Positions 7,162 to 37,548 of a DNA stretch of 64,000 bases are shown piece by piece. The number at the start of each line of letters is the position of its first letter. The stretch's first letter is position 1. The notes under the pieces were generated by a model, which searched no databases, was not told the DNA's origin, and saw nothing but the letters and a program-made list of their open reading frames with translations. The position numbers and the translations under genes were made by a program. The stretch comes from Candidatus Poribacteria bacterium (GTDB lineage Bacteria > Poribacteria > WGA-4E > JAJDTR01), in the NCBI GenBank assembly GCA_965222225.1, contig CBDCTK010000002.1, positions 1,568,001 to 1,632,000 on the forward strand, in the 5' to 3' direction.

Positions 7162-8001
7162 ATGAAAGCAATGAAATCTGCCGTGAGTTTAGGACTTATC
7201 CTCTTTCTCTGCGTGTCGTTGAGTGGTGTTCTGTTGGTGTTGGACGCCTCGGCGAAAATCACGCCGAAAGAGACCGATGTCCCCACGGGATTCTACGCCA
7301 TTCAAAAAGGCGATACGCTATGGCACCTCGCCAAGAACTATCGGAATGATCCCCTATTGTGGCGGGAATTCGAGAAATATAACATCTTCACCAATCCGCA
7401 CCTAATCTACCCGAAGGAAAAACTCCAAGTGTCCGCGATGTGGGGGTTCCCCGGTGTCGCAATGCCCGAGCCGCCGGCAATGGTTGCCGAAATGGCAGCA
7501 AAGTCTGACTTGGATATGCTTAGAGCGAATTTTGAAGCCCATCTCATGAGCACGGCAGCCTCCCTTGAGGAAATCGGTGCCGAAGTTTCCGAAATTCACC
7601 AAGAGATTCACGGCATTCAGGAATCCATAACGGGACTGAAAAGCGCGATGGACATGGGCGGTGAGTCGCTCTCAATGGCGAACATGGAGAACTCGAAAGC
7701 CATCGCCGGTCTGAACGACTCCGTAATGGGTATCGGTAAGAAGTTCAAAGCGCACATCATGGAGATGGAGACGGCACACATGGAGCACGTCAAGCACGGC
7801 GAGCACATTGACGGTCACCTTGAGAATATTGAGAAGACGCTCGCCGGAATGAAGGCAGTGCAAGACGATACCCCCGGAAAGGTCGACAAGATTCTCACTC
7901 CCCCGGCGAAGAAAAAGTACAAAACACGTCCGATCGCCTTCCTGACAGCATTGGTTGGCGGAGCCGCGTGGGTAGCCGTGAACTCTCTCGGCGATCGCTA
8001 A
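7162..8001 (+). CDS. LysM peptidoglycan-binding protein with coiled coil and C-terminal membrane anchor
   Basis: RBS AAGGAG before ATG 7162; signal peptide; LysM motif YAIQKGDTLWHLA...NPHLIYP; heptad-rich middle; hydrophobic C-terminus. Confidence 0.8.
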   Translation: MKAMKSAVSLGLILFLCVSLSGVLLVLDASAKITPKETDVPTGFYAIQKGDTLWHLAKNYRNDPLLWREFEKYNIFTNPHLIYPKEKLQVSAMWGFPGVAMPEPPAMVAEMAAKSDLDMLRANFEAHLMSTAASLEEIGAEVSEIHQEIHGIQESITGLKSAMDMGGESLSMANMENSKAIAGLNDSVMGIGKKFKAHIMEMETAHMEHVKHGEHIDGHLENIEKTLAGMKAVQDDTPGKVDKILTPPAKKKYKTRPIAFLTALVGGAAWVAVNSLGDR

Positions 8002-8024
8002 TAACCGAACCGGCACAAACGACC

Positions 8025-8067
8025 AAAAAGCAGGGCAAATGCTCAACGGCATCCGCCCTGCTTTTTT
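8025..8067. terminator. Rho-independent (bidirectional-type) terminator
   Basis: AAAAAGCAGGGC...GCCCTGCTTTTTT. Confidence 0.8.
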
Positions 8068-8102
8068 CGTTTCAACATTCTATAGTCATCTATATTCATA
8101 TT

Positions 8103-8262
8103 GTAGTATGTAGGGTGCGATCAACCGAGCGATCAAGGAAGCGAATAGCGACCGCGATAGAGATCTTCTAGCGAAGGATCAAGTAGTATGTAGGGTGCGC
8201 ACTGCGCACCAGCCTTTGAAAGCCCTAGCGAAGGATCAAGCGATCAAGCGAGTGCGATAGAA
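8103..8262 (+). repeat. Cluster A of mini-hairpin repeats (GATCAA..GCGATAG) with a GTAG-REP
   Basis: Complete unit at 8131, several truncated GATCAA starts, REP at 8190-8210. Confidence 0.9.
8190..8210 (+). repeat. GTAG-type REP palindrome (other copies at 9188-9208, 13179-13199, 16464-16484)
   Basis: GTAG-GGTGCGCA-C-TGCGCACC; all four copies are followed by AGCCTTT. Confidence 0.8.
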
Positions 8263-8379
8263 GATTATGATAAAAATCCACGCCCTCCACCGCCCTTCTA
8301 ACACGCGTGCTATTGCGCACCTATCAAACGTGCACACATCACGTCTGTCACTGGCAACTAGACCCCAACCACTGCCATT

Positions 8380-8961
8380 ATGTCCCAACTTGAATACATA
8401 GTCGATCGCCTAACCGAACTTTCGGGCGACCGAATCAGCGAAATTGGTGAATCCATGAGGACCGGTTTGGGCTGGGTCGGCGCTAACACACTCGTCCTGC
8501 TCGCGGACAACGAGAAATGCCAATTTCACAGCGCCTCTGGTTGGCGGCGAGCATCGCGAATAATCGGCTTGGCACGCCAACTCGGAAAGCCCCTGCTCCT
8601 ATGGAATCTATCTTTCCACAACGACGCTCGGCGAACCCCAAACCTCGGTACGGAACGGGCGGCTCGAGACGCTCAACAGCACATCGTTCAATTTCCCTCT
8701 GCCATTGTTAGCGTTATTGAAGGCGCCCAAAAAAGAGACTTCTCAGCAGTCGAACTTGCTTTACCGGACGGTATCGTCTTTGTCGATGGCGCCGAAACGC
8801 TCTGGGGACACCTTACGATTTCACCGAGAACCATCGTTGCGAGCAGCGCTGAGGGAATTGCGTCGGGCATTTCAGGGCTGTTAGCCGAAATTGCATCAAT
8901 ACCCGCGAACGAATTAGCTTCTCAACGCAGGACGCGCCTCGCCTCAATCACCTTATCCTAG
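8380..8961 (+). CDS. Hypothetical protein resembling a degenerate acetyl-CoA carboxylase carboxyltransferase alpha (AccA)
   Basis: GWRRASRIIGLARQLGKPLLLW resembles AccA GYRKALRLMxxAERFxxPIITF; the C-terminal ELASQRRTRLASI resembles the AccA tail; the GEGGSGGA motif is absent. Confidence 0.45.
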   Translation: MSQLEYIVDRLTELSGDRISEIGESMRTGLGWVGANTLVLLADNEKCQFHSASGWRRASRIIGLARQLGKPLLLWNLSFHNDARRTPNLGTERAARDAQQHIVQFPSAIVSVIEGAQKRDFSAVELALPDGIVFVDGAETLWGHLTISPRTIVASSAEGIASGISGLLAEIASIPANELASQRRTRLASITLS

Positions 8962-9054
8962 GTAAGCGCCGCAATCAGCAAACAAACTACTCTTCTGTAC
9001 CTCTTGCAACCGTTGTTTTTCCCTTTAATTCCATGTCAATCTATGATAACCTTA

Positions 9055-9467
9055 AAACCTGTTTGAAAAGTACAGTTTGTAGTATGTAGGGTGCGATCAA
9101 CTGAGCGATCAAGGAAGCGAATAGCGACCGATCAAGCGAGTGAATAGCGAGGGCGATAGAAATCCCTTAACTCGACTCAGGAGATTTGTAGGGTGTGCAC
9201 TGCGCACCAGCCTTTAAAGCCCCACCGCGGGATCAAGGGAGCGAATAGCGACTGCGATAGATATCCCTTTTAAAGCCTGGCTGAAAAATACAGTTTGTAG
9301 GGTGCGATCAAAGGAATGAATAATGACTGCGATCAACCGACTGAATAGCGAGTGCGATAGAAGTCCGATAGAAGATCCCATAGGTATGAATCAGCCAACA
9401 ATGAAAACATGGAAAAACGTCCTCAAACTCTCAAAATGGCTTTGCCACCGATTATTCAAAGAGTCCC
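9055..9467. mobile_element. Non-autonomous MITE (IS5-like ends) carrying REP and mini-hairpin repeats (cluster B)
   Basis: TTA|AAACCTGTTTGAAAA ... TTATTCAAAGAGTCCC|TTA; subterminal sequence homologous to 10236-10828; a second left end near 9272. Confidence 0.65.
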
Positions 9468-9540
9468 TTAGATTTTAACGTAACGCGCATAATATATTCT
9501 GCCACGCACCATGTAACCCATTACCAACCCCTATTTCTCC

Positions 9541-10170
9541 ATGATTGAAAAAAACTTCCGGCCCTTCGTCAAGAAAATCCTACTTCCCATTGCGAAAGGC
9601 CTAACGGCAATTGGAATTACCGCGAATACGATCACACTCCTTGGTCTTTTAGTGAACGTCATCGCCGCATTCTTTTTGGCAACAGGACGATTCGTAGTGG
9701 CGGGAATCCTAATACTGTTCGGCGGGAGTTTCGATGCGATTGATGGCGTTGTTGCCCGCGTCAGCAACAAGGACGAATCCAACGCCTCCGGAGCACTGTT
9801 TGATTCCGTAATCGACCGCTATGCGGAAGCCGTTGTCTTTGTGGGCGCGATGATTTACTTCTATCACCTTTCCCACCTGCTAGGCGTGGTCTTGGTCTTC
9901 GCTTCCGTTATCGGATCTATTCTCGTAAGTTATGTCCGCGCCAGAGCCGAAAGCCTCCACGTCGAATGCAAAGTTGGTCTGATGCAGCGCCCGGAACGAA
10001 TCGTCCTCTTGGCGCTCGGCGTCCTCGCCCAAGGCATAATCATAAGATACTTCTCTTGGGAGTCCAACGGCATCATCCTCGTATGCGTATTTGCCATCCT
10101 TGCGTTAACGGCTCACATCACCGCGCTCCACCGCCTCGTCTTCTCTTATTCTCAGCTCAACAACCGATAA
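9541..10170 (+). CDS. CDP-alcohol phosphatidyltransferase (PgsA / PI-phosphate synthase-like)
   Basis: ANxIT; DAIDGVVAR...GALFDSVIDRYAE; SYVRARAE; RPER. Confidence 0.9.
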   Translation: MIEKNFRPFVKKILLPIAKGLTAIGITANTITLLGLLVNVIAAFFLATGRFVVAGILILFGGSFDAIDGVVARVSNKDESNASGALFDSVIDRYAEAVVFVGAMIYFYHLSHLLGVVLVFASVIGSILVSYVRARAESLHVECKVGLMQRPERIVLLALGVLAQGIIIRYFSWESNGIILVCVFAILALTAHITALHRLVFSYSQLNNR

Positions 10171-10235
10171 CCGTTGCAGGTTGGGAGCGGTGATCGTCAA
10201 ATCGCCGATTTCATCTCTTGCCGCCCTCCGCCTTA

Positions 10236-10828
10236 GAACCTGTTTGAAAAGTACAGTTTGTAGGATCAACCGACTGAATAGGGAGGGCGATCAAGCGAGT
10301 GAATAGCGAGTGCGATAGAGTTTTTCAGGTGTATAGCAACGCCGAATCGCACAAATCAAAGCACCAGAGTGCGATCAACCGACTGAATAGGGAGGGCGAT
10401 AGTCTTGTAGGATCAAGCGAGTGAATAGCGAGTGCGATAGTCTTGTAGGATCAACTGAGTGGATAACGAAGGCGATAGTCTTGTAGGATCAACTGAGTGG
10501 ATAACGAGGGCGATAGTCTTGTAGGATCAACCGACTGAATAGCGAAGGCGATAGTCTTGTAGGATCAACCGACTGAATAGGGAGGGCGATCAAGGGAGCG
10601 AATAGCGACTGCGATAGAGTTTTTCAGCTGTATAGCAACGCCGAATCGCACAAATCAAAGCCCCAGAGTGCGATCAAGCGAGTGGATAGCGAGTGCGATA
10701 GAAATCCTACCAGCCTTTGGAAATCCCATAGATATCCTACAGGTATGTAGCAGCCAAAAATGAAAACATGAAAACCCTTTTCTACAAATGCTCAAAAATA
10801 GCTTTACTATCTATTTTTCAACAGGCTC
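10236..10828. mobile_element. Non-autonomous MITE (IS5-like ends, TTA target duplication) filled with mini-hairpin repeats (cluster C)
   Basis: TTA|GAACCTGTTTGAAAA ... TTTTTCAACAGGCTC|TTA; no ORF; 10 repeat units inside. Confidence 0.75.
10373..10617 (+). repeat. Tandem array of the mini-hairpin repeat, 38-bp period
   Basis: GATCAA at 10373, 10411, 10449, 10487, 10525 and 10563, joined by the invariant linker TCTTGTAG. Confidence 0.95.
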
Positions 10829-10837
10829 TTACACAAA

Positions 10838-13042
10838 CTACCGGTTCCACAAGTATCCCAGCTTGAATACGATCACTCGGTTTTCCAGTCGCAGCATGTC
10901 CGCGTCCTTCCGCCACCCCTCATTATATCCGACAAATAAGTTGCTCTTTGGGCTGTACTCCCACCCAAACAGAAAACTCACCAAATAGTCTTCAGTAATC
11001 TGTAAATTAGCAAATGCAGTATGTTCGCGAGCCGCCTGCGTGAAGACACGAAAGAACACATCTCTAGTGAACAGATAAGTACCCCGGAAAGAACCTACGA
11101 GGAATCGTCCATCAATTTTCCGCTGTTCATCTAAGCTCTGGGCAAAACTTCCGCGGAGGTCAATCGTAAAGTTGCTTCGTGGTCGAACAGTAGCGGCAAG
11201 AGAGGCTACCCGCTGTAAACCAATGGTCTGTTGCGCGAAGTTGTAGTAATCCGATACGTTAAACCTTAACGATCCGGCAATAGGCTTGGAACGGTTTGTG
11301 TCAATATCCACCGCGAAATAGTTCGCGCCAAAGATGTTTGTCAACTCAATCTCCCTGCTGTGTTCGTACACTGCGCGAATGCGGTTCAAAAAAAACTCGG
11401 TAAACACCAGTCCGGTGGTTAATTTCACATCCGCTGCGACCAAATCCTCCGCAAAGTCCCGAGCGAGCCCTAGTGTAGGATGGCCGCGCTGCCATTGTAC
11501 GAAATAGTCGTTTGTATAAAGCGTCTGAGAAACCCCGCTCCCCGCACCGAAAAACGGACGCCAGCGATTGTCAGTGCGGGCGCTATACGTCGCCTCGGCA
11601 TCCAGCCGTTGCCATCCTCGATACGGCTCCTTCTCGAGGAATCCTGTTTCATTCGTTTCAAACCGAGGTTCGACACGCTCCAACTCCGCCTTGATATCCC
11701 ACAAATAATCACGCTTGGCAAAATTCAAAATGTAGGCGCTCCCGCCCGCGATTCCGTCTGAATGCAGGCTGCGCGCGACCTGTCCCGTCGCATGATAGGT
11801 CTTGCCAAGCGCCAGACTCATGTCTGCGCCGACGACCCGACTGTAGCCATCGCCGTGTTCCCGATTTGTGAAGAGCATCCCAACGTTGGAGCGCTTGAGC
11901 ACATCGCGCTTCACCCGCACTGCAGAATACCATGCTTCCTCCTTGGATCTTGACGGTTTCCCGGCTTCTAGTTCATCAAAACTCCCGGTTAGAGCCCCGA
12001 GTACACCAATCGAATAACGGCTAACCTTGCCCGTCATTTTTCCGCCCCACAGAATGTCGCCAAGACTTCCAATGCGACGGCTAAAAAACAGGTCGAGCGG
12101 TGTCTCAAAAAGGCTGTTGCCCTCAACGAAAAACGGACGCTTCTCCGGAAACCGCGTCGGAAATCGGGTGAGATTAATTTCCAGCTGATCCGCCTCTACC
12201 TGCGCGAAATCGGGGTTCAGCGTGAAGTTCGTCCTTAGCGCACCCGATACGCTGTACTGCACGTCAATCCCTGTGGCCAACTGTCCCGCGACAGGCTGCG
12301 CGTGAGTCTTCGACGAGCCGCCCAGAGCGTAAGGTATGATTTCAAACGATTTCCCGGTTTCAATCCCGGAAAGCCCGACGAGGTGACCAAGATCGGACAT
12401 GCGTGTCCTAGCCCCGGCTTGTGTCATCTGTTTCCAGATAGTAATTTCGGACTTCCTGCGATTCAACCGTTCAATGTCGAATCCCCACACCTGCTCATTC
12501 GTATCGGGAAACCGAAAGTTAGCGAACGGAATCTTAAATTCCGCTGTCCAACCGAGGTCGTCAATTTGCGACTCCACCCACCAGACACCGCGCCAACTTC
12601 CATCAATTTGGGCGTCATCGTAACGATAGTTGTCCTGTTGGATACCGCTCGGAGTTGTGGCAAACTTATAACCCGTACGGTGGTCATGGTGGGGATCGAT
12701 AAAGAACGAGATGAGATCGGAAACGTAAATGTTGCCTCGCCGCGTGATGCGACTCACAATCTTGGCAGGCTCGGAGTCGTAACACCGGAACGCGACGTAG
12801 AGGTTGTGACGATCGTAGGCGATGTAGGCGACGGTTTCATCGGTCGCGGATTCACCGCGTCTCGGCTCTAGCTGGATGAACCCGGAGATGGGAGTTGCCG
12901 CATTCCAAGCGAGGTCATCTAGGCGGCCATCTATTATCGGAGGCGGGGTGTCTTCTAAACGGTATGCTGTAATGAGGTGCGATCCCAAGCCGTCTGTATG
13001 GCCCCAAAGCAGAGACGGGAAAAGGAGCAAAGCAAGAATCAT
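10838..13042 (-). CDS. Carbohydrate-binding family 9-like / DUF5916 outer-membrane protein
   Basis: Signal peptide; PIIDGRLDDLAW, AYDRHNLYVAF, GWTAEFKIPF, TLNPDFAQVEAD, FPEKRPFF; beta-barrel-like C-terminus. Confidence 0.85.
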   Translation of the reverse strand: MILALLLFPSLLWGHTDGLGSHLITAYRLEDTPPPIIDGRLDDLAWNAATPISGFIQLEPRRGESATDETVAYIAYDRHNLYVAFRCYDSEPAKIVSRITRRGNIYVSDLISFFIDPHHDHRTGYKFATTPSGIQQDNYRYDDAQIDGSWRGVWWVESQIDDLGWTAEFKIPFANFRFPDTNEQVWGFDIERLNRRKSEITIWKQMTQAGARTRMSDLGHLVGLSGIETGKSFEIIPYALGGSSKTHAQPVAGQLATGIDVQYSVSGALRTNFTLNPDFAQVEADQLEINLTRFPTRFPEKRPFFVEGNSLFETPLDLFFSRRIGSLGDILWGGKMTGKVSRYSIGVLGALTGSFDELEAGKPSRSKEEAWYSAVRVKRDVLKRSNVGMLFTNREHGDGYSRVVGADMSLALGKTYHATGQVARSLHSDGIAGGSAYILNFAKRDYLWDIKAELERVEPRFETNETGFLEKEPYRGWQRLDAEATYSARTDNRWRPFFGAGSGVSQTLYTNDYFVQWQRGHPTLGLARDFAEDLVAADVKLTTGLVFTEFFLNRIRAVYEHSREIELTNIFGANYFAVDIDTNRSKPIAGSLRFNVSDYYNFAQQTIGLQRVASLAATVRPRSNFTIDLRGSFAQSLDEQRKIDGRFLVGSFRGTYLFTRDVFFRVFTQAAREHTAFANLQITEDYLVSFLFGWEYSPKSNLFVGYNEGWRKDADMLRLENRVIVFKLGYLWNR

Positions 13043-13056
13043 CGGTTACGGGTTAT

Positions 13057-13277
13057 TGTAGGCAGGATCAAGCGATCAAGCGAGTGGATAGCGAGTGCGA
13101 TAGAGATTCTTCCTCTAGTATGTAGTGTGCGATCAACTGAGCGATCAAGGAAGCGAATAGCGACTGCGATAGCTATATGTAGGGTGCGCACTGCGCACCA
13201 GCCTTTGGGGTTGAGTTCTTCTAGGGTGCGATCAACTGACCAAAAATCGCTTTGGCACCGATTATTCAAACAGGCTC
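13057..13277 (+). repeat. Cluster D: mini-hairpin repeats, a REP and the right end of the MITE
   Basis: Units at 13074 and 13143; REP 13179-13199; ATTATTCAAACAGGCTC|TAA. Confidence 0.85.
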
Positions 13278-13347
13278 TAAAGATTACTTCAAACGAAACA
13301 TCTTTCCTGTTTCCAGTTTTCTGAAGCACATGTGTTTCTCTTCCGCT

Positions 13348-14262
13348 TCATTTTTTCCGCGTTACCTCGGCTAACAAAGCCTTCATTCCGTAAAGGCGAT
13401 TCTCCGACTGCTCAAACACAATCGACCGCGGATCAGCAATCAAATCACCCGAAATCTCGTACCCCCGGTGCGCAGGCAAACAGTGCATCACCAATGTGTC
13501 GTGTCCTTCCATGATTGCCTTATTCAACTGATACGGCTGCATCAACTCAATCCGACGCTGTTTTTCGTCTTCAAATTCAGGATTCCCAAAGAACTCCATA
13601 TCCACCCAAGTATCAGTATAAACTACATCACTTTCAGCTATAGCTTCGCTGAGACAATCTGACAACCTGCACAACCCCGTCCGACATGCCTCTGCAAGCA
13701 GTGCTTCGTCAGCCGCCGCCGGATTTGTAATCGGCGCCACAATCGTAATCTCCATGCCAACCTTCATCCCCGCCGCAATAAGCGAGTTACACACATTGTT
13801 ATGGATCCCGACATAGGTGAGTTTCACTCCCTCTATCCGTCCTAGTCTTTCTTGGATGGTCATCAGATCCGCCAATATCTGGGTAGGGTGATACCGATCG
13901 CAACATCCGTTGATTATTGGAACCGATGAGACTTCCGCTGCCCGGATTACGTCCGCATGATTTAGTAGCCGCGCTAGAATGACATCAACATACGCTGATA
14001 ATACGCGAATTTCATCATGGAAGTCCGTCAAGACAAAATTTGTCACTCCCCAATCCAAGAAGAAGGCGTGCCCCCCTAACTGCGTCATACCCACCTCGCC
14101 GGCACAGCGAGTTCGAGTCGATGTCTTCTGAAATAACAGCGCGAGGCTTCGGCCGCGCATCAGGTCTTCAAACTTCTCCGGGAAACGCTTAATTTCGATG
14201 CTTTTCTCAACAACATCAAGGATATTTTCTCGCGTCCAGTCCTTGAGTGAAATCAAGTGCAT
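13348..14262 (-). CDS. argF: Ornithine carbamoyltransferase
   Basis: KTSTRT, HPTQ, YTDTW and HCLP motifs. Confidence 0.9.
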   Translation of the reverse strand: MHLISLKDWTRENILDVVEKSIEIKRFPEKFEDLMRGRSLALLFQKTSTRTRCAGEVGMTQLGGHAFFLDWGVTNFVLTDFHDEIRVLSAYVDVILARLLNHADVIRAAEVSSVPIINGCCDRYHPTQILADLMTIQERLGRIEGVKLTYVGIHNNVCNSLIAAGMKVGMEITIVAPITNPAAADEALLAEACRTGLCRLSDCLSEAIAESDVVYTDTWVDMEFFGNPEFEDEKQRRIELMQPYQLNKAIMEGHDTLVMHCLPAHRGYEISGDLIADPRSIVFEQSENRLYGMKALLAEVTRKK

Positions 14263-14623
14263 AACTCTTCTCCAAAGATAAACAATGAAAAATGTCGAAA
14301 AGCCTATTTAATCAGTCTACAATCCATCTTCGCCGTTCTTTTTCTTTCTCAAATTTCTAGGCTCAATACTTCGTTACGATTAGTCCGATTTCCACATCTG
14401 TTAATGTATTCTGCCCCAAAATAGATCAATGTTGGCAAACAGATGCAGCCGCTGTCCGCCAACATTGAGTTCAATACACGTATCACTGTCTTAGTTCATA
14501 GTCCAACTACCGACCGCTGGTCGATGTTTGGTCAGTTGCGTAGTCCTCATTGTATCATGTTCCCGACAAAATGCCAAACAAATACGAGCCTTGGGCAAAT
14601 AAACCTCGTGTTCCTGCCGCTGT

Positions 14624-15430
14624 TTATCCACTCCGTTTCAGTCTTCCCGTTCGTTTCGCATACTGTTCCCCCAAATGGAAAATCCAAAAACCGAGCGGGA
14701 TTGTTATGATGCCAATTATCAGCAGCAAAATGAGGTTGCCCGCTTGGTCGGCAATCGACGAATTATCAAGCATTGCTGCCCGAATGGACCTAAGCGCATA
14801 CGTCGCAGGGGAAATTCGAGATAACGGTTGAATCCATTCCGGCAATACCTCAATCTCGTAGTAGACGCCGGAAATCAGCAAAACAACGGATTGGAGGATT
14901 CCCGTTGCTGCCTGACCCTTTTCGGGCGAAAGCAGTGGAAAAATCGCCGCCATCAAGCCGATCCCGATAAAGGAAACGCTCGCGATGAGCACAGTCACTG
15001 CCAGCGTCAACCAATTGGCGTGACTTAGATCGATGTGCTCTCTGAAAAAGAGTGGCATCACCGCCAACACAATCCCTGTCCGCAACAGACCATACAGAAT
15101 AGCAAAGAGACACGAGCCGACAAGATGTGTGATGCGGTAAATAGGTGCCATAAACGTGTACTCAATCGTGCCCTCCCAGCGTTCCCATGTTATGGCATCG
15201 CTTACCTCTCTCATCATAATTGAAAGGAATCCCCAAATCAATGCGCCGATCACCAAGTAAAGCACGTCTTTTGCGGAGCCGCGCCCGACCATGATTAACC
15301 CAATCGTTAATGCATTGACGATTGAATAGGTGAAAAAGAGAATCTCCCAGTTGAGATACCGCTTGAGAAGATTGAAATTGCGTTCAATGAAAGCATAGGA
15401 AACCACAGTTTCACGTTTGATATCGAACAT
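14624..15430 (-). CDS. ABC-2 type exporter permease
   Basis: Multiple TM helices; ERWEGTIEY; SGVYY..LPEWIQ. Confidence 0.9.
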   Translation of the reverse strand: MFDIKRETVVSYAFIERNFNLLKRYLNWEILFFTYSIVNALTIGLIMVGRGSAKDVLYLVIGALIWGFLSIMMREVSDAITWERWEGTIEYTFMAPIYRITHLVGSCLFAILYGLLRTGIVLAVMPLFFREHIDLSHANWLTLAVTVLIASVSFIGIGLMAAIFPLLSPEKGQAATGILQSVVLLISGVYYEIEVLPEWIQPLSRISPATYALRSIRAAMLDNSSIADQAGNLILLLIIGIITIPLGFWIFHLGEQYAKRTGRLKRSG

Positions 15431-15433
15431 TGT

Positions 15434-16285
15434 CTACTCCACATCCTCCGCCAAATCTTTTCCGGTAAGCTCGATAAACACATCCTCAAGCGTAACCTGT
15501 TTGTCTTGCATGCTAATCTGGGCTTTGAGTTCCTTCGCCGTACCCGTGGCGATAAACTTGCCCTTGTCAATAATTGCAATGTGATCGCATAGGGATTCGG
15601 CTTCGTCCATATCGTGCGTAGTCAATAACACAACAACATCGTGCTCTTCCCGAATCTCATTAATCAACCGCTGTACATCGCGTTTCGATTTTGGATCTAA
15701 GCCTGTGGTGGGCTCATCAAGCAGCAGCAGAATCGGCGAGGTAAGGAGTGCGCGAGCGATAGCAATCTTTTGTTGCATGCCTCGTGAAAGATCTTCCATC
15801 GACTCATTCATCCGAGTAGAATCAAAGCCAAGCCGAACCAGAATCTTTTCAGCCTTGCCCCGAGCTTCGCCTGCCGAGAGATCGTAAAGCCGCGCGGCAT
15901 ACAGTAAGTTCTCTGTCGAAGACAGCCGCTTGAAAAACGAGGCCTCCACAGAAACCCGGTTAATCATCTGTCGAAACTTGAAGCTGTCGTTGACTACATC
16001 GTATCCAAGAAAGCCAATCTGCCCGCTATCAGGAAGTAGCAGTGTAGAAATCAATCGAATCAGAGTCGATTTTCCAGATCCATTGGCGCCGAGGATACCG
16101 TAAATTTCTCCCATTCCAACCTGAAACGAAACATTGTCAACTGCTTTGATGACCTCCTTCTCCCGTCTTAACTGATGACGGATTTTCTGGGAGAACGTCA
16201 ATTTACTATCTTGTGGGTACGGTTTCTTCCGGTAGAAATGTTTAACGAGTCGGTCAACTACCAAACCGTTTGATGTAATTATCAC
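15434..16285 (-). CDS. ABC transporter ATP-binding protein
   Basis: GANGSGKS, LSRGMQQ, LLLLDEPT, TTH. Confidence 0.95.
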   Translation of the reverse strand: MIITSNGLVVDRLVKHFYRKKPYPQDSKLTFSQKIRHQLRREKEVIKAVDNVSFQVGMGEIYGILGANGSGKSTLIRLISTLLLPDSGQIGFLGYDVVNDSFKFRQMINRVSVEASFFKRLSSTENLLYAARLYDLSAGEARGKAEKILVRLGFDSTRMNESMEDLSRGMQQKIAIARALLTSPILLLLDEPTTGLDPKSKRDVQRLINEIREEHDVVVLLTTHDMDEAESLCDHIAIIDKGKFIATGTAKELKAQISMQDKQVTLEDVFIELTGKDLAEDVE

Positions 16286-16368
16286 AATATTCCTTTAGCC
16301 CGTCCCTTCATATTTGAGATATGCAGGTTTCCTTTCCGACTAACCACTAATCTCGACTTTGTACATTT

Positions 16369-16597
16369 GTAGGATCAACTGAGTGGATAACGAAGGCGAT
16401 AGTCTTGTAGGATCAAGTGAGTGAATAGCGAGTGCGATAGAGATCCCCCGCCCACCATTTCTTGTAGGGTGCACACTGCGCACCAGCCTTTGAGAGTGCC
16501 AGCGGCGATCAAGCGAGCGAATAGCGACACTGCGATAGAGATCCCCTGCGATCAAATGAGTGAATAGCGAACGCGATAGAACTCCCATAGAAATCCC
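16369..16597 (+). repeat. Cluster E: mini-hairpin repeats with a REP
   Basis: Units at 16373, 16411, 16507 and 16550; REP 16464-16484. Confidence 0.9.
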
Positions 16598-16970
16598 AAA
16601 AGGTTGGAGAGTGTTAGAAACCCCCGGCGACTTTTTCCGATACATCGGGTTGGGTGAAACACAAGTTCTAGTCTATAAGGAAGACTTTTTCAATGGTCAA
16701 CCAAAAAGACCGGATAGTTAAAATCTCACCGGCTTTTCTGGAACGCTTGATTGACACCGTCTGTTATACTGCTTAAATGTACAAAGTCGAGACAATCGTT
16801 AGTTCACTGTCATTGTTCTTTGTTAATCAGTATTGCAATCCCTCTCGCGTTACGCATCATGCAGTATTTCTTTTTCACTTGACAGATAAGCAACCAAGTA
16901 TGTATAATTGCGCAGAATCGCAGTCATAGTGCGAACCAAAGCATATTGACAAATACTAAAGGAGGATAAG

Positions 16971-17255
16971 ATGGCTGACAAATTGTCGAAGCAAGATGTC
17001 ATTAGCAGTGTTGCTGATGCAACAGGTTTGACTAAGAAAGAAGCAGGCGACGCAGTTGACGCCGTCGTCAACACTATCAAGAATGCCCTCGCTGAAGGAA
17101 ACTCGGTGGGGCTAATTGGGTTTGGCTCTTTTGAGGTAAAGACCAGAGCGGCTCGCACAGGACGTAACCCGCAGACAGGCGCAGAACTTGATATTCCTGA
17201 AAAAAAAGTCCCATCCTTCAAGGCTGGTAAAGAGCTAAAAGACGCTGTCGCGTGA
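16971..17255 (+). CDS. hup: HU family DNA-binding protein
   Basis: GFGSF...[12 protein letters not shown]...[14 protein letters not shown]; RBS AAGGAGG. Confidence 0.97.
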
Positions 17256-34553: not shown

Positions 34554-35894
34554 TCACTCCATTGCATAACCCTTCAACCTGTATTGCAACGCCCGTAGAC
34601 TTATACCCAAGATTTCTGCCGTTCTCGTGCGGTTGCCACTCATGCGCTCAAGTGTTTTAAGAATAAGCTCCTTCTCCATCTCTTTCATTGTCATGCCGAT
34701 AGGTATGTCGTTGTAGGTTCGCTTCTTCAAGGATTGAATTTCATCGGGAAGATGCTTCGGCAAGACAACTTCTCCCTCTGCAAAAAGAACTGCTCGCAAA
34801 ATTGAGTATTCCAATTCGCGTACATTGCCAGGCCAATCATAATGCATCAGAAGATTTCTCGCTTTCTGATTGATAAACCGAACTGGTTGACTATGAGTTT
34901 CACTGTGTTTTCGCAAAAAATATTCGGACAGAATTTCAATGTCTTGCCGTCGCTCTCGCAGCGGGAGGAGTTGAATTGGTATCATATTTAATCGATAGTA
35001 GAGATCTTGACGGAATAATCCATCTTCAATTGCTTGACGCAAATCGTGATTAGTAGCCGCAATAATTCGAACCTTCACACGAATAACATGCGTTCCACCG
35101 ACACGCTCAATTTCCTGCTCCTGAGTCGCACGAAGCAACTTAGCTTGCAGTGCCACTGGCATGTCTCCTATCTCGTCGAGAAAAAGCGAACTTCCATTGG
35201 CCCGTTCAAATTTCCCCATTTTTTGGTAAATAGCCCCTGTAAATGCTCCTCGCTCGTGGCCAAAAAGTTCGCTTTCCAAAAGATTAGCCGGGATGGCAGC
35301 GCAGTTCACAACAACCATCTCTTTATCTGCATAAGCGCTATTTTGGTGAAGCGCACGTGCGACGAGCTCCTTGCCTGTGCCGCTTTCCCCATGAATGAGC
35401 ACGGTAGAATCTGTGCCAGCCACTTTCTCGATGACCTTCAAAACCTCCACAATCTGTGGACTTTCTCCAATTATCTCCTCATAACTATGGATAAGTTCAT
35501 CTCTTTCGCTCTGTTTCGTCGCACGGTGGTGTTCAAGCGCCTTGTCGACCTTCGCCTTAATAAGTTCCGACTTGAACGGTTTTTCCAGAAAATCATATGC
35601 TCCAAGTTTAGTGGCCTCAACCGCCCGCTGAATTGAGCCGTGTGCGGTCAACATCGTCACCAGTAGTCCGGGATATCTCCGGTGAATTTGTGCCAGCGTT
35701 TCCAAGCCGTCCATACCTGGCATTTGGATGTCTAATAATACTAGATCCGGCAGATCTCGATCGATCTGTTCCAGAGCAGCGTTCCCACTGGACGCAGTAA
35801 TCACTTCGTAGTGGTCCATTTCTAGCCGATCTCGTAAGATCGTAACTGTGTCGGGTTCGTCATCAACGATGAGTATTTTCTCGAGTTGATCCAT
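34554..35894 (-). CDS. Sigma-54-dependent response regulator (NtrC family)
   Basis: Receiver VDD...D..MP; GESGTGKE; ESELFGHERGAFTGA; Fis-type HTH. Confidence 0.95.
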   Translation of the reverse strand: MDQLEKILIVDDEPDTVTILRDRLEMDHYEVITASSGNAALEQIDRDLPDLVLLDIQMPGMDGLETLAQIHRRYPGLLVTMLTAHGSIQRAVEATKLGAYDFLEKPFKSELIKAKVDKALEHHRATKQSERDELIHSYEEIIGESPQIVEVLKVIEKVAGTDSTVLIHGESGTGKELVARALHQNSAYADKEMVVVNCAAIPANLLESELFGHERGAFTGAIYQKMGKFERANGSSLFLDEIGDMPVALQAKLLRATQEQEIERVGGTHVIRVKVRIIAATNHDLRQAIEDGLFRQDLYYRLNMIPIQLLPLRERRQDIEILSEYFLRKHSETHSQPVRFINQKARNLLMHYDWPGNVRELEYSILRAVLFAEGEVVLPKHLPDEIQSLKKRTYNDIPIGMTMKEMEKELILKTLERMSGNRTRTAEILGISLRALQYRLKGYAME

Positions 35895-36040
35895 CGATTA
35901 CCAGCCATCTGATTAGTAATTTGGTACGTAGGCTGAACTTACCCCCATCCTTTAGACAGCTATGAAGGAGATTTAAGTAATAAAATCCGACTAATTGTGG
36001 TCCGATTTCAACGCCTGAAGTTATTGGAAATACACCTCGT

Positions 36041-36076
36041 GGGTATCTCTACCGCACTCGCTATCCGCTCGCTTGC
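36041..36076 (-). repeat. Single mini-hairpin repeat inserted near the IS3 orfB 3' end
   Basis: Minus strand CAA GC GA GC GGATA GC GA GT GCGGTAGAGATACCC. Confidence 0.85.
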
Positions 36077-36344
36077 TGGTGTACGGTAGTCGAGCGATTG
36101 ATGGAGTCGCTCTTGGTTATAAAAGTTGAAATAGTCTCTCAATCGACGATGAGTTGTGTTCATTGAGTCATAGTCGTTGAGATAGACCTCCTCGTACTTG
36201 ACGCTGCGCCAAAGCCGCTCAATGAAGATGTTGTCAAAATAGCTGCCTCTGCCGTCCCAACTGATGGCAATGTTATAGGCTTCAAGTCTACCAGTAAACG
36301 CGTCAGAAGTAAATTGACTTCCTTGGTCGTTGTTGAATATCAAC

Positions 36345-36379
36345 GATCAAGTGACCGAATAGCGAGCGCGATAGAGATC
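36345..36379 (+). repeat. Single mini-hairpin repeat inserted in IS3 orfB
   Basis: GATCAA GT GA CC GAATA GC GA GC GCGATAGAGATC. Confidence 0.9.
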
Positions 36380-37548
36380 CGCTTGATTGACTAAGGGCTC
36401 GTTCCAGAGCCGACAGACAAAAGAATACGTCAAGTGAGTTGGAAAGTTCCCATGACAACACGTAACGGGAAAACCAATCCATTACTGCTACCAGATAAAC
36501 GTAACCATTGCTCAAGTGAATATAGGTTATATCAGTTGCCCAGACGTGATTCGGTCTGTTGATACTTAATTCCGTCAGCAGATAAGGGTACATTTTCGAC
36601 GGTTTGCCCATACCGGAGGTCTTGGGCTTGGGATAGATGGCAGCTAATCCCATCTTTCGCATTAATCTTGCTACCCGTTTCGGATTGACGACATATCCTT
36701 GGGAACGAAGCCATTTCGTTAATTTAGGCAGCCCGTAGAACGGTGTCTTGGTGTACTGCTCATCTAACAGACTCATATAGAGCAGGTTTTGTGGCTACTC
36801 TGTTGCAGGACGATAATAGTATGAGGCTCTGGACAAGCCTAAAAGCTCGCATTGTCTCACAACCGACAATGAACGGCACTCCTGTTCAACAAGCTGCCGT
36901 TTGTGTTCAACGGAGGCGTTGAGGTTTTTTTTGAAGCCAGTCCAGTTCTACCTTCAACTGATCAATCTGGCGATAGAGATCTGCCACTAACTCGTCATTG
37001 TCAGAGACCATTTTTGAGCGCCCGTTGGTAAACAGTTGAGGTAATTCCTCAAGAACCTGTTTTTTTCATAGGCTGACTTGCGCTGGATTAACACCGTATT
37101 CACTGGCAATCTGAGCGGTAGTTTGCTGATTCTTAATGGCTTCAAGAGCCACTTGTGCTTTGAATCGGCCATCGTGCTGTTTTCTGTGGGACATGGTGGA
37201 GAAACTCCTTTCTTTTTCTTGGCGTTTCCGAGCCATATTTTCGCCCAGATGATGACCATTTTGCCAGTCGGAATGATCTCTTATTCAACTGTCTAGTTTT
37301 TGGGGGTAATTGCACCTTGCATGCGGAGCAGCGAGTTTGAGTTTAAAACGCCAGCGCATGATGTCCGACAATTAAGCTGCTTCAGCACATTCAAAGGTTC
37401 CTAGCGGAGCAATCCCTTATACGGATTCTTTGCTCCGCGAAGATAATCTTCAATTTGTAATCAAAGATTGCTGTCACAAGCTAGGTTGGTAAGGTCCTTT
37501 ATGGTTTCCGATTGAAATACTCAGCCATTTTTAGTAGGCTTATATTCC

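Follow-up and report, generated by a model that had tools for sequence, protein, structure and literature searches.

A 34-36-nt hairpin unit found twice in a decayed IS3-family element of Candidatus Poribacteria behaves as a very small mobile repeat

A window of 64,000 nt from the genome of a Candidatus Poribacteria bacterium (contig CBDCTK010000002.1, positions 1,568,001 to 1,632,000; "the window" is this whole stretch) contains a decayed insertion sequence (IS) of the IS3 family on the minus strand (35933-37314). It measures 1382 bp, compared with 1312 bp in intact homologs, and holds two copies of a hairpin unit of 34-36 nt, called copy A and copy B here. A broken IS by itself is an ordinary finding. 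Comparison of filled and empty sites shows that the unit behaves as a discrete mobile entity, which inserts by itself, can face either way within the IS and has ends fixed to within about 1 nt. Judged from the same sites, insertion produces no target duplication, replaces 0-3 target bases and follows no target consensus. An initial annotation of the window had placed two copies of the unit in the transposase gene in opposite orientations, and the sequence confirms both. Our best explanation of the whole, held with a little better than even confidence, is that a relic IS3-family host carries two copies of a discrete mobile unit, specific to certain Poribacteria, that would be moved by a replication-coupled, single-stranded DNA route with an enzyme supplied in trans.

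The window IS was aligned with 20 full-length homologs from ten related genomes. Copy A (36345-36379, plus strand, antisense to the transposase; sequence GATCAAGTGACCGAATAGCGAGCGCGATAGAGATC) lies exactly where the orfB frame breaks, as the initial annotation had stated and the list of open reading frames (ORFs) shows, and it splits the rve domain. It is missing from 20/20 homologs, where the alignment has a gap of 34 columns. GATC is absent from the empty sites, which read ...TCGAGT|CCGTTA.... At this junction the homologs read ...SQSSPLIFNNDQGSQF, and in the alignment that is colinear after removal they read ...ALRQSSPLIFNNDQGSQF.... Removal of 31 nt, as first proposed, reopens the frame yet retains one surplus codon; the alignment gap and the reading of the homologs put the true net insertion at 34 nt. 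Copy A is a private insertion of the window IS copy with this net gain. The sibling closest to it, at C2:2948042, is fully paired and departs from it in 1 nt. Contigs bearing copy A were also found in other public runs, namely X14 (0 differences), X1 (175 nt, 2 differences) and X18 (603 nt, covering both A and B, 14 differences). Because the A-bearing sequence occurs in these contigs, copy A is not very recent. A contig of run X16 is a homolog without copy A, with 7 nt in place of 41; among the X16 contigs listed, none spans copy A at this locus. Sponge metagenomes of several studies cover 70-96% of the locus.

Copy B (about 36043-36077, minus strand, in sense; net +35 nt) swaps the last 7 codons of orfB for a 23-codon tail (...YRTPASERIASAVEIPTRCISNNFRR). 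With both copies removed the alignment is colinear, and the homologs end ...LDYRTP(Y/C)EVYF(Q/R); the earlier claim that taking out 35 nt at copy B restores a typical ending was therefore correct. Copies A and B form an inverted pair of 36 nt with 81% complementarity, and each is bordered by a pair of short inverted words (5 and 6 bp). Copy B is missing from 17/20 homologs and present in L119, L120 (genome G005) and L131 (genome G003). Compared with L121 from the same genome, L120 shows copy B as a clean insertion. The four copy-B sequences share GCGGTAG in place of GCGATAG, an A[G/C]CAA head and identical variable positions, and these shared atypical bases mark them as descendants of a single event. 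In MITE-like (miniature inverted-repeat transposable element-like) derivatives of the IS in this genome, a B-type unit stands directly 5' of ...CCCACGAGGTGTATTTCC. From these sequences copy B is an older insertion, inherited by the IS lineage through transposition and decay into MITE-like derivatives. The initial annotation had both units arriving after the IS, and for copy B this fails, as the same atypical copy is found in L119, L120, L131 and the derivatives. It had also set its reading against the case that intact homologs already hold these sequences; copy A is held by none (0/20) and copy B by three (3/20), and the colinearity after removal stands.

Further insertion sites were found in IS copies of genome G003. 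Site S1 lies in orfA (in sense, +34 nt; L131 and L135), with GG replaced and 30 nt on either side identical to L132. Site S2 is a clean antisense insertion of 35 nt (L131 and L135) whose junctions carry a 3-nt repeat. Site S3 is likewise antisense and +35 nt (L131, L132 and L135). A sixth site occurs in a contig of run X18, in a divergent IS copy, at the position of window 36665-36673 in the N-terminal part of orfB, where 40 nt stand for 7. The inserted pieces have common ends, (A)TCAA...AGATCC(C), and all five IS insertions (A, B and S1-S3) are single units without donor flank. No REP (repetitive extragenic palindrome) of the GTAG type was found within 30 nt upstream of copy A or copy B. On both points the initial annotation was right: neither copy has a REP flank, and the unit inserts without MITE or REP flanks.

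None of the five IS sites has a target duplication, and no target word is shared among them; their left flanks end CC, CG or AC. No similarity between target and unit was seen at these sites, the longest common word being 4 nt, a length also reached in 77-87% of null windows. GATC or GCGAT-like targets had been suggested, and 0/5 empty IS sites have either word at the junction; GATC is neither target nor duplication. A synteny-based comparison of filled and empty sites across the window was set aside because the relatives are just 74-90% identical and their intergenic DNA is unalignable. Taken with the empty sites at A and B, the insertions at S1, S2, S3 and the sixth site in a contig of another sample confirm that single units are mobile, as first proposed.

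A 373-bp MITE-like derivative at C2:738054-738426, flanked by a 3-bp target duplication (GTT), consists of the left end of the IS, broken exactly at S1, followed by a single hybrid mini-unit and then by the right end of the IS from the B site. This arrangement suggests recombination between two directly oriented units, such as L131 carries, which would have turned an IS into a mobilisable MITE.

The consensus of the unit is (G)ATCAA-NN-GA-NN-GAATA-NN-GA-NN-GCGATAG-AGATCC, 34-36 nt in length. The genome was scanned with the pattern ATCAA-NN-GA-NN-GAATA-NN-GA-NN-GCGATAG, allowing at most 3 mismatches at the fixed positions, which gave 1054 matches compared with 0 in the reversed genome. Units are preceded by G and followed by A(G/A)AT(C/T)CC, and many copies start and finish with GATC. 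Within the window a 23-nt core has 10 matches at up to 3 mismatches and 0 in 100 shuffles.

The variable positions occur in 256 different 8-nt combinations and covary. At the four variable pairs, pairing is seen in 94.1, 93.5, 95.5 and 96.1% of copies; independent positions would be expected to give 52.0, 52.8, 49.7 and 79.1%. Among 610 distinct unit sequences 91.3% are paired; 1000 shuffles gave a mean of 58.7% and a maximum of 60.9%, and sliding the 3' partner by 1-3 positions drops pairing to 22-55%. G.T makes up 12.5% of the pairs and A.C 3.0%. Since G.T is tolerated and A.C is rare, the pairing belongs to one strand. The fold has two 2-bp helices split by GA opposite GA, with an AA opposite GC mismatch below. 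As DNA it is weak (-1.3 to -3.7 kcal/mol). The RNA fold of copy A has -5.4 kcal/mol with a z-score near 0, and its minimum-energy form is the structure indicated by covariation. This combination of a weak fold with strong covariation leads us to infer a partner, probably a protein, that would read the fold.

The unit is restricted in its distribution. A pattern scan of 185,579 species genomes yielded at least 98 stretches with the unit motif, and among the matches listed 80/80 loci are from Candidatus Poribacteria. Copies were then counted in 61 genomes of the order at no more than 1 mismatch. The unit is present in 10/10 genomes of genus g1 (495-1132 copies each) and in 4/4 genomes of genus g4, which belongs to another family (180-202 copies each). 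Low counts were obtained for G059 (17 copies), G010 (2), and G041 and G043 (1 each), and 43/61 genomes are free of units. A search of Rfam with window 8000-17000 gave no match at E values up to 1.

Most units lie between genes; about 66-70 of the 1051 chromosomal units fall in called ORFs, a figure that reflects rough ORF calling. In the window the other 20 copies, all on the plus strand, form intergenic clusters at 8129-16587, many of them nested or inside GTAG-type REP hairpins. At 10374-10560 five units form a regular tandem array with a 38-nt period and the spacer TCTTGTAGG. Adjacent units of this array differ in their variable stems, which argues against a simple recent tandem duplication. 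Across the chromosome, 356/1051 units have GTAG within 30 nt upstream, with a peak at -10, compared with 6.7% of 3000 random sites. This GTAG belongs to the host REP, and the units concerned occupy the apex of GTAG-type REP hairpins. REPs of the same type also flank genes for REP-associated tyrosine transposases (RAYTs) in these genomes. A paralogous empty site is known for 129/1051 units. Relative to such sites, a single unit brings a net gain of 33 to 36 nt and takes the place of 0-3 loop bases. Many of the empty-site events are units nested in other units, and the nested forms share GCGAT at both junctions. Insertion in the loop of a perfect stem of at least 5 bp accounts for 23% of 99 distinct empty sites, compared with 5.4-5.8% of random sites.

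Units have also entered protein genes. A 2419-codon ORF (C2:2917913-2925169; unit at 2921273, L211) has 72 extra in-frame nt in this genome (G000), and 5/5 relatives are empty at the site. The insertion comprises the unit plus 36 nt and starts directly after native GGATCAAG; no donor for the non-unit 36 nt was found in this genome. The flanks in G005 are 99% identical, whereas G000 and G005 are mostly about 75-86% identical. In G000 the gene at C2:2964239-2966155 (L212) has a 37-nt unit where G003 and G005 have 133 nt of other sequence, and its ORF stays open. The lost stretch encodes ..EEKFGITSQ..GIASGSLAE.. and adjoins native GAATAGCGAGCG. A multi-copy gene provides a third case, with an insertion of 36 nt. 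From the first two genes it seems that native sequence resembling the unit can seed copying from units.

The orientation of units follows local GC skew. Regions of negative GC skew contain 390 plus and 162 minus units and regions of positive skew 188 plus and 311 minus (odds ratio 0.25, p = 4e-27). The association holds for 640 clusters (odds ratio 0.21, p = 1.5e-19) and for singletons (p = 5e-11). Orientation is split equally between ++ and -- gene pairs. Skew correlates with gene-strand bias (rho 0.41) and unit bias correlates with skew (rho -0.51), while rho for unit bias with gene bias is 0.08. In the window 21/22 units are on the plus strand; the exception is copy B, which arrived with the IS. 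The structured strand lies mainly on the C-rich (lagging-sequence) strand. Because orientation tracks GC skew and not gene direction, a DNA-level process linked to replication is indicated, which argues against an RNA function. The pattern points to a replication-linked process on single-stranded DNA. The cumulative GC skew of chromosome C2 switches direction many times and shows no two-arm pattern, a sign that this repeat-rich genome may have undergone many inversions or rearrangements, or that its assembly contains joins.

Candidate enzymes were sought by profile search. The genome has five Y1_Tnp matches, and the Y1 types compared were a 157-aa IS200-like gene, a type of about 190 aa (truncated in G000), a TAG-interrupted RAYT and a 247-aa gene. 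The best match is the 157-aa gene, with 65.8 bits to the IS200 model; the REP-transposase model gives 30.6 bits with a cut-off of 80. It carries the motif Y...Q..HH, which PMC6006769 gives for subclass 1.2, with REP listed as "no" for that subclass. This gene (C2:3080258-3080728, L149/L154; homologs L155-L177) has inverted arrays of a REP-like hairpin (..GCCCCAGNGGGGCGACAGGTGTATAG..) on both sides, and in all genomes inspected the flanking hairpin is ..GCCCCAG(A/C)GGGGCGACAGGTGTATAG... Gene and hairpin may represent an undescribed REP-Y1 pairing. The type of about 190 aa and the TAG-interrupted RAYT are flanked by GTAG-type REPs. The former, RAYT-like with NH.H, WQ and YI.NNP motifs, is intact in G001, G003, G005, G006 and G008; in G000 it is cut to a 73-aa C-terminal piece (C2:3560268-3560486, L153/L178) with mini-units at both ends. 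None of these genes was accepted as the cognate RAYT of the unit, as each Y1 type has its own REP or none and its distribution does not match that of the unit. Units beside Y1 genes occur in unit-bearing genomes only, inside the REPs of those genes. No TnpB was found, and one weak reverse-transcriptase match (27.5 bits) is present in the genome.

In the mechanism we favour, the active form of the unit would be a folded single DNA strand, because the four variable pairs covary, G.T but not A.C is accepted, and without a partner the hairpin lacks the strength to be stable. Insertion would be coupled to replication, given that orientation follows GC skew and not transcription and that the structured strand is mostly the lagging-sequence strand. 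The catalyst most likely acts in trans, and the best candidate would be one of the several HUH/Y1 enzymes, RAYT or IS200-like, of these genomes. The consequences seen are broken genes and, where two units lie in direct orientation, an apparent recombination that converts an IS into a MITE.

Several observations weigh against this reading. No enzyme among the Y1 genes examined could be tied to the unit, and homologs of the 157-aa, 190-aa and RAYT types also occur in unit-free genomes. According to PMC6006769, HUH/Y1 transposition makes precise insertions beside a fixed 4-5-nt target with the active strand on the lagging-strand template; here no target word was found, some insertions cost target bases, and the opposite strand is the one on which the structured strand mostly lies. 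The hairpin is no more stable than shuffled sequence in either DNA or RNA folds. The orientation bias could stem from selection after insertion and not from the insertion step. The same unit variant recurs within the same REP type, which implies that composite REP-plus-unit elements were amplified whole and that independent insertions number far below 1054. In two protein genes the native junction sequence already shared a stretch with part of the unit, 8 nt in one and 10-12 nt in the other, which suits copying seeded by homology better than it does transposition.

These seeded junctions keep alive a rival without a dedicated transposase, in which units would spread while the lagging strand is synthesised, by template switching or by copying seeded at microhomologies, or else by gene conversion with the roughly 1000 existing copies as donors. 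On this view the nascent strand would fold and loop out, and the change would be fixed in the next round of replication. We consider this a genuine but minority possibility. It would fit the position of the structured strand mainly on the lagging-sequence strand, the slightly imprecise junctions with 0-3 target nt replaced, the GCGAT common to both junctions of nested units, the 3-nt junction repeat at S2, the 72 nt added directly after native GGATCAAG at a site empty in 5/5 relatives, the 133 nt replaced by a 37-nt unit beside native GAATAGCGAGCG, and the failure to find a cognate enzyme. The IS sites speak differently: each of the five insertions is a discrete unit of 34-35 nt, their ends agree and donor flanks are lacking, the targets have no similarity to the unit, and copying from random donors should often have brought donor flanks along. 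The extra 36 nt of the 2419-codon ORF, which have no donor in this genome, also count against copying. A bolder version of the favoured reading, which we regard as unlikely, is that the unit is a self-contained single-hairpin DNA element, at 34-36 nt smaller than any transposon of known mechanism. At replication forks it would enter the nascent lagging strand as folded single-stranded DNA, and would need no target duplication, target word or cognate flanking transposase. If true, this would be an insertion route apart from the IS200/IS605-RAYT paradigm and would also account for the spread of repeats resembling REPs and cyanobacterial small dispersed repeats (SDRs).

Other explanations are less probable still. 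An RNA copy of the unit might be reverse-transcribed and then inserted, a route that has reportedly been proposed for cyanobacterial SDRs. Covariation with G.U-type wobble is typical of RNA, the minimum-energy RNA fold of copy A is exactly the covariation-supported structure, and the genome has its weak reverse-transcriptase match. The orientation of units, however, is unrelated to the direction of flanking genes and follows GC skew, which argues against this route, as do the lack of an Rfam match in the unit region and an RNA z-score near 0; we think it improbable. The unit could also be a fragment of the restriction type, excised and rejoined at GATC sites; many copies begin and end with GATC, and one nested unit (u4643134) sits at the GATC apex of a palindrome. 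With GATC at the junction of 0/5 empty IS sites and net gains of 34-35 nt, not 31, this idea has very little in its favour. Least credible of all is that copies A and B are ancestral IS sequence lost from other copies. Copy B is indeed common to several IS copies and MITE-like derivatives, but intact homologs in at least 6 genomes lack both copies, are colinear and have the typical C-terminus, the unit occurs about 1000 times outside the IS, and copy A is unique to the window IS.

The host of the two units, on the favoured reading of a mobile unit lodged in a relic IS, can be described from its homologs. In intact copies the open frame of orfA (125 aa) overlaps that of orfB (285 aa). By profile search, orfA of homolog L122 matches HTH_Tnp_1 (30.8 bits) and its orfB matches HTH_21, rve (72.5 bits) and rve_3. 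The ends of the window IS are listed as TGCAATTACCCCC...GGGGGTAAGTTCA and those of the IS family as TGTAATTACCCCC...GGGGGTAAGTTCA. The terminal inverted repeats align, and 3-bp target duplications are present in 6/6 G005 copies; the window copy has none (flanks AGG and GCC). No second full-length copy of the IS was found in this genome. In the window the orfA remnant (37066-37236, minus strand) has 56 codons and ends at a premature TGA (37066-37068), where homologs have Trp (..AQVSQWKKQ..). A run of eight A in the orfA/orfB overlap (36925-36932, minus strand) is likely the -1 frameshift site predicted for an IS3-type element. An in-frame TAG in the N-terminal part of orfB (36795-36797, minus strand) gives ..YYYRPATE*PQNLLY.. 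where homologs read ..PVGESPQNLLY... The orfB fragment upstream of copy A (36303-36776, minus strand) matches HTH_21 and the first 64/102 positions of the rve profile, and its C-terminal end is ...ALSQSSGSLSRSLFGHLIV.... The downstream fragment (36008-36343, minus strand) starts (M)IFNNDQGSQF, matches rve_3 and continues through copy B into the foreign tail.

The initial annotation had further held that the unit can inactivate larger mobile elements. This stands for copy A to the extent that the rve domain is split. In L119 and L120, which bear copy B, orfA is open and orfB has 301 aa with the tail alone altered, so copy B leaves the catalytic domain untouched; the window IS, moreover, has its TGA and TAG. 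Any of the lesions in the window IS (two nonsense codons and copies A and B) may have been the inactivating one, and the wording that the hairpin units break the transposase is too strong. The host shares with the IS3 family the overlapping orfA (helix-turn-helix) and orfB (DDE transposase, rve) frames, the A-run and the TG...CA ends. Of the 3-4-bp target duplication that marks the family, a 3-bp form is seen in homologs, while the window copy has none. The window copy is a relic that carries a pair of nonsense codons and a pair of unit insertions.

Among the G005 copies L120-L124, several intact ones sit within clusters of mini-units; L124, for example, is flanked by ..GCGATAGC on one side and AAATCC.. 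on the other. IS and units are thus reciprocally nested. The right-hand neighbour of the window IS is an intact 446-aa gene (34554-35894, minus strand), read from its sequence as a putative sigma-54-dependent response regulator with a receiver (...DDEPD...), a Walker A motif (GESGTGKE) and a C-terminal helix-turn-helix.

How the smallest bacterial repeats, such as REPs and cyanobacterial SDRs, multiply is still unsettled. The present case offers a second, unrelated lineage in which a unit of about 35 nt inserts alone, on the basis of filled and empty IS sites, covariation and an orientation tied to replication. Testable predictions follow concerning the active strand, the enzymes to try and the junctions to expect. 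The unit also bears on genome evolution in sponge symbionts, through disruption of genes and ISs, in-frame additions to large genes, and the apparent conversion of an IS into a MITE by unit recombination.

Among known elements, MITEs share terminal repeats with a parent IS and have target duplications; the unit has no duplication and no parent IS ends, and measures 34-36 nt. The IS200/IS605 family is similar in the absence of target duplication, in hairpin recognition and in the link to replication strand. The unit differs from it in that no fixed target word was found, and in having one hairpin rather than two end structures, and no TnpB found; insertion 3' of a fixed tetra- or pentanucleotide was not seen at the five IS targets. 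With respect to skew, its strands have the reverse of the polarity that the lagging-template rule described for IS608-type elements (PMC6006769) would give.

The likeness to the REP/REPIN-RAYT system is closer. The unit is a short imperfect hairpin of high copy number (1054), mostly extragenic, lineage-specific and patchy, and Y1/HUH genes are present. It has an A-A opposite G-C mismatch inside the stem, and the corresponding mismatch is needed for RAYT cleavage of Escherichia coli REPs according to PMC3733652, which also records REPs inside genes. The consensus lacks the GTAG tag (GT[AG]G) that REPs have where the hairpin begins, and none of the Y1 genes examined is a cognate RAYT flanked by inverted unit copies. 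Single REPs are usually seen as immobile remnants of doublets (PMC3116915), whereas the five IS insertions are single units and not the inverted doublet (REPIN) as replicative unit. Within the true GTAG-type REPs of this genome the unit rides as a passenger.

The closest concept is that of the SDRs. SDR1-8 of Nostoc punctiforme and relatives, reportedly described by Elhai et al. in 2008, are said to be 21-27 nt long, to have a conserved structure with compensatory changes, to nest in themselves and inside larger repeats or minitransposons, and to have been argued to be independently mobile. The unit is likewise very small, has a structure backed by compensatory changes and is nested in itself and in larger repeats. 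It differs in being found in Poribacteria and not in cyanobacteria, in its length of 34-36 nt, and probably in its sequence. According to PMC4390886, insertions of SDR5 into the short palindrome HIP1 are precise and fall between its bases 3 and 4, whereas no fixed target was found for the unit, whose insertion into ISs is documented by filled and empty homologs. Our literature search on REP, MITE or RAYT repeats of Poribacteria found nothing describing such repeats. The unit is an undescribed variant among very small mobile repeats, with SDRs as its nearest counterpart.

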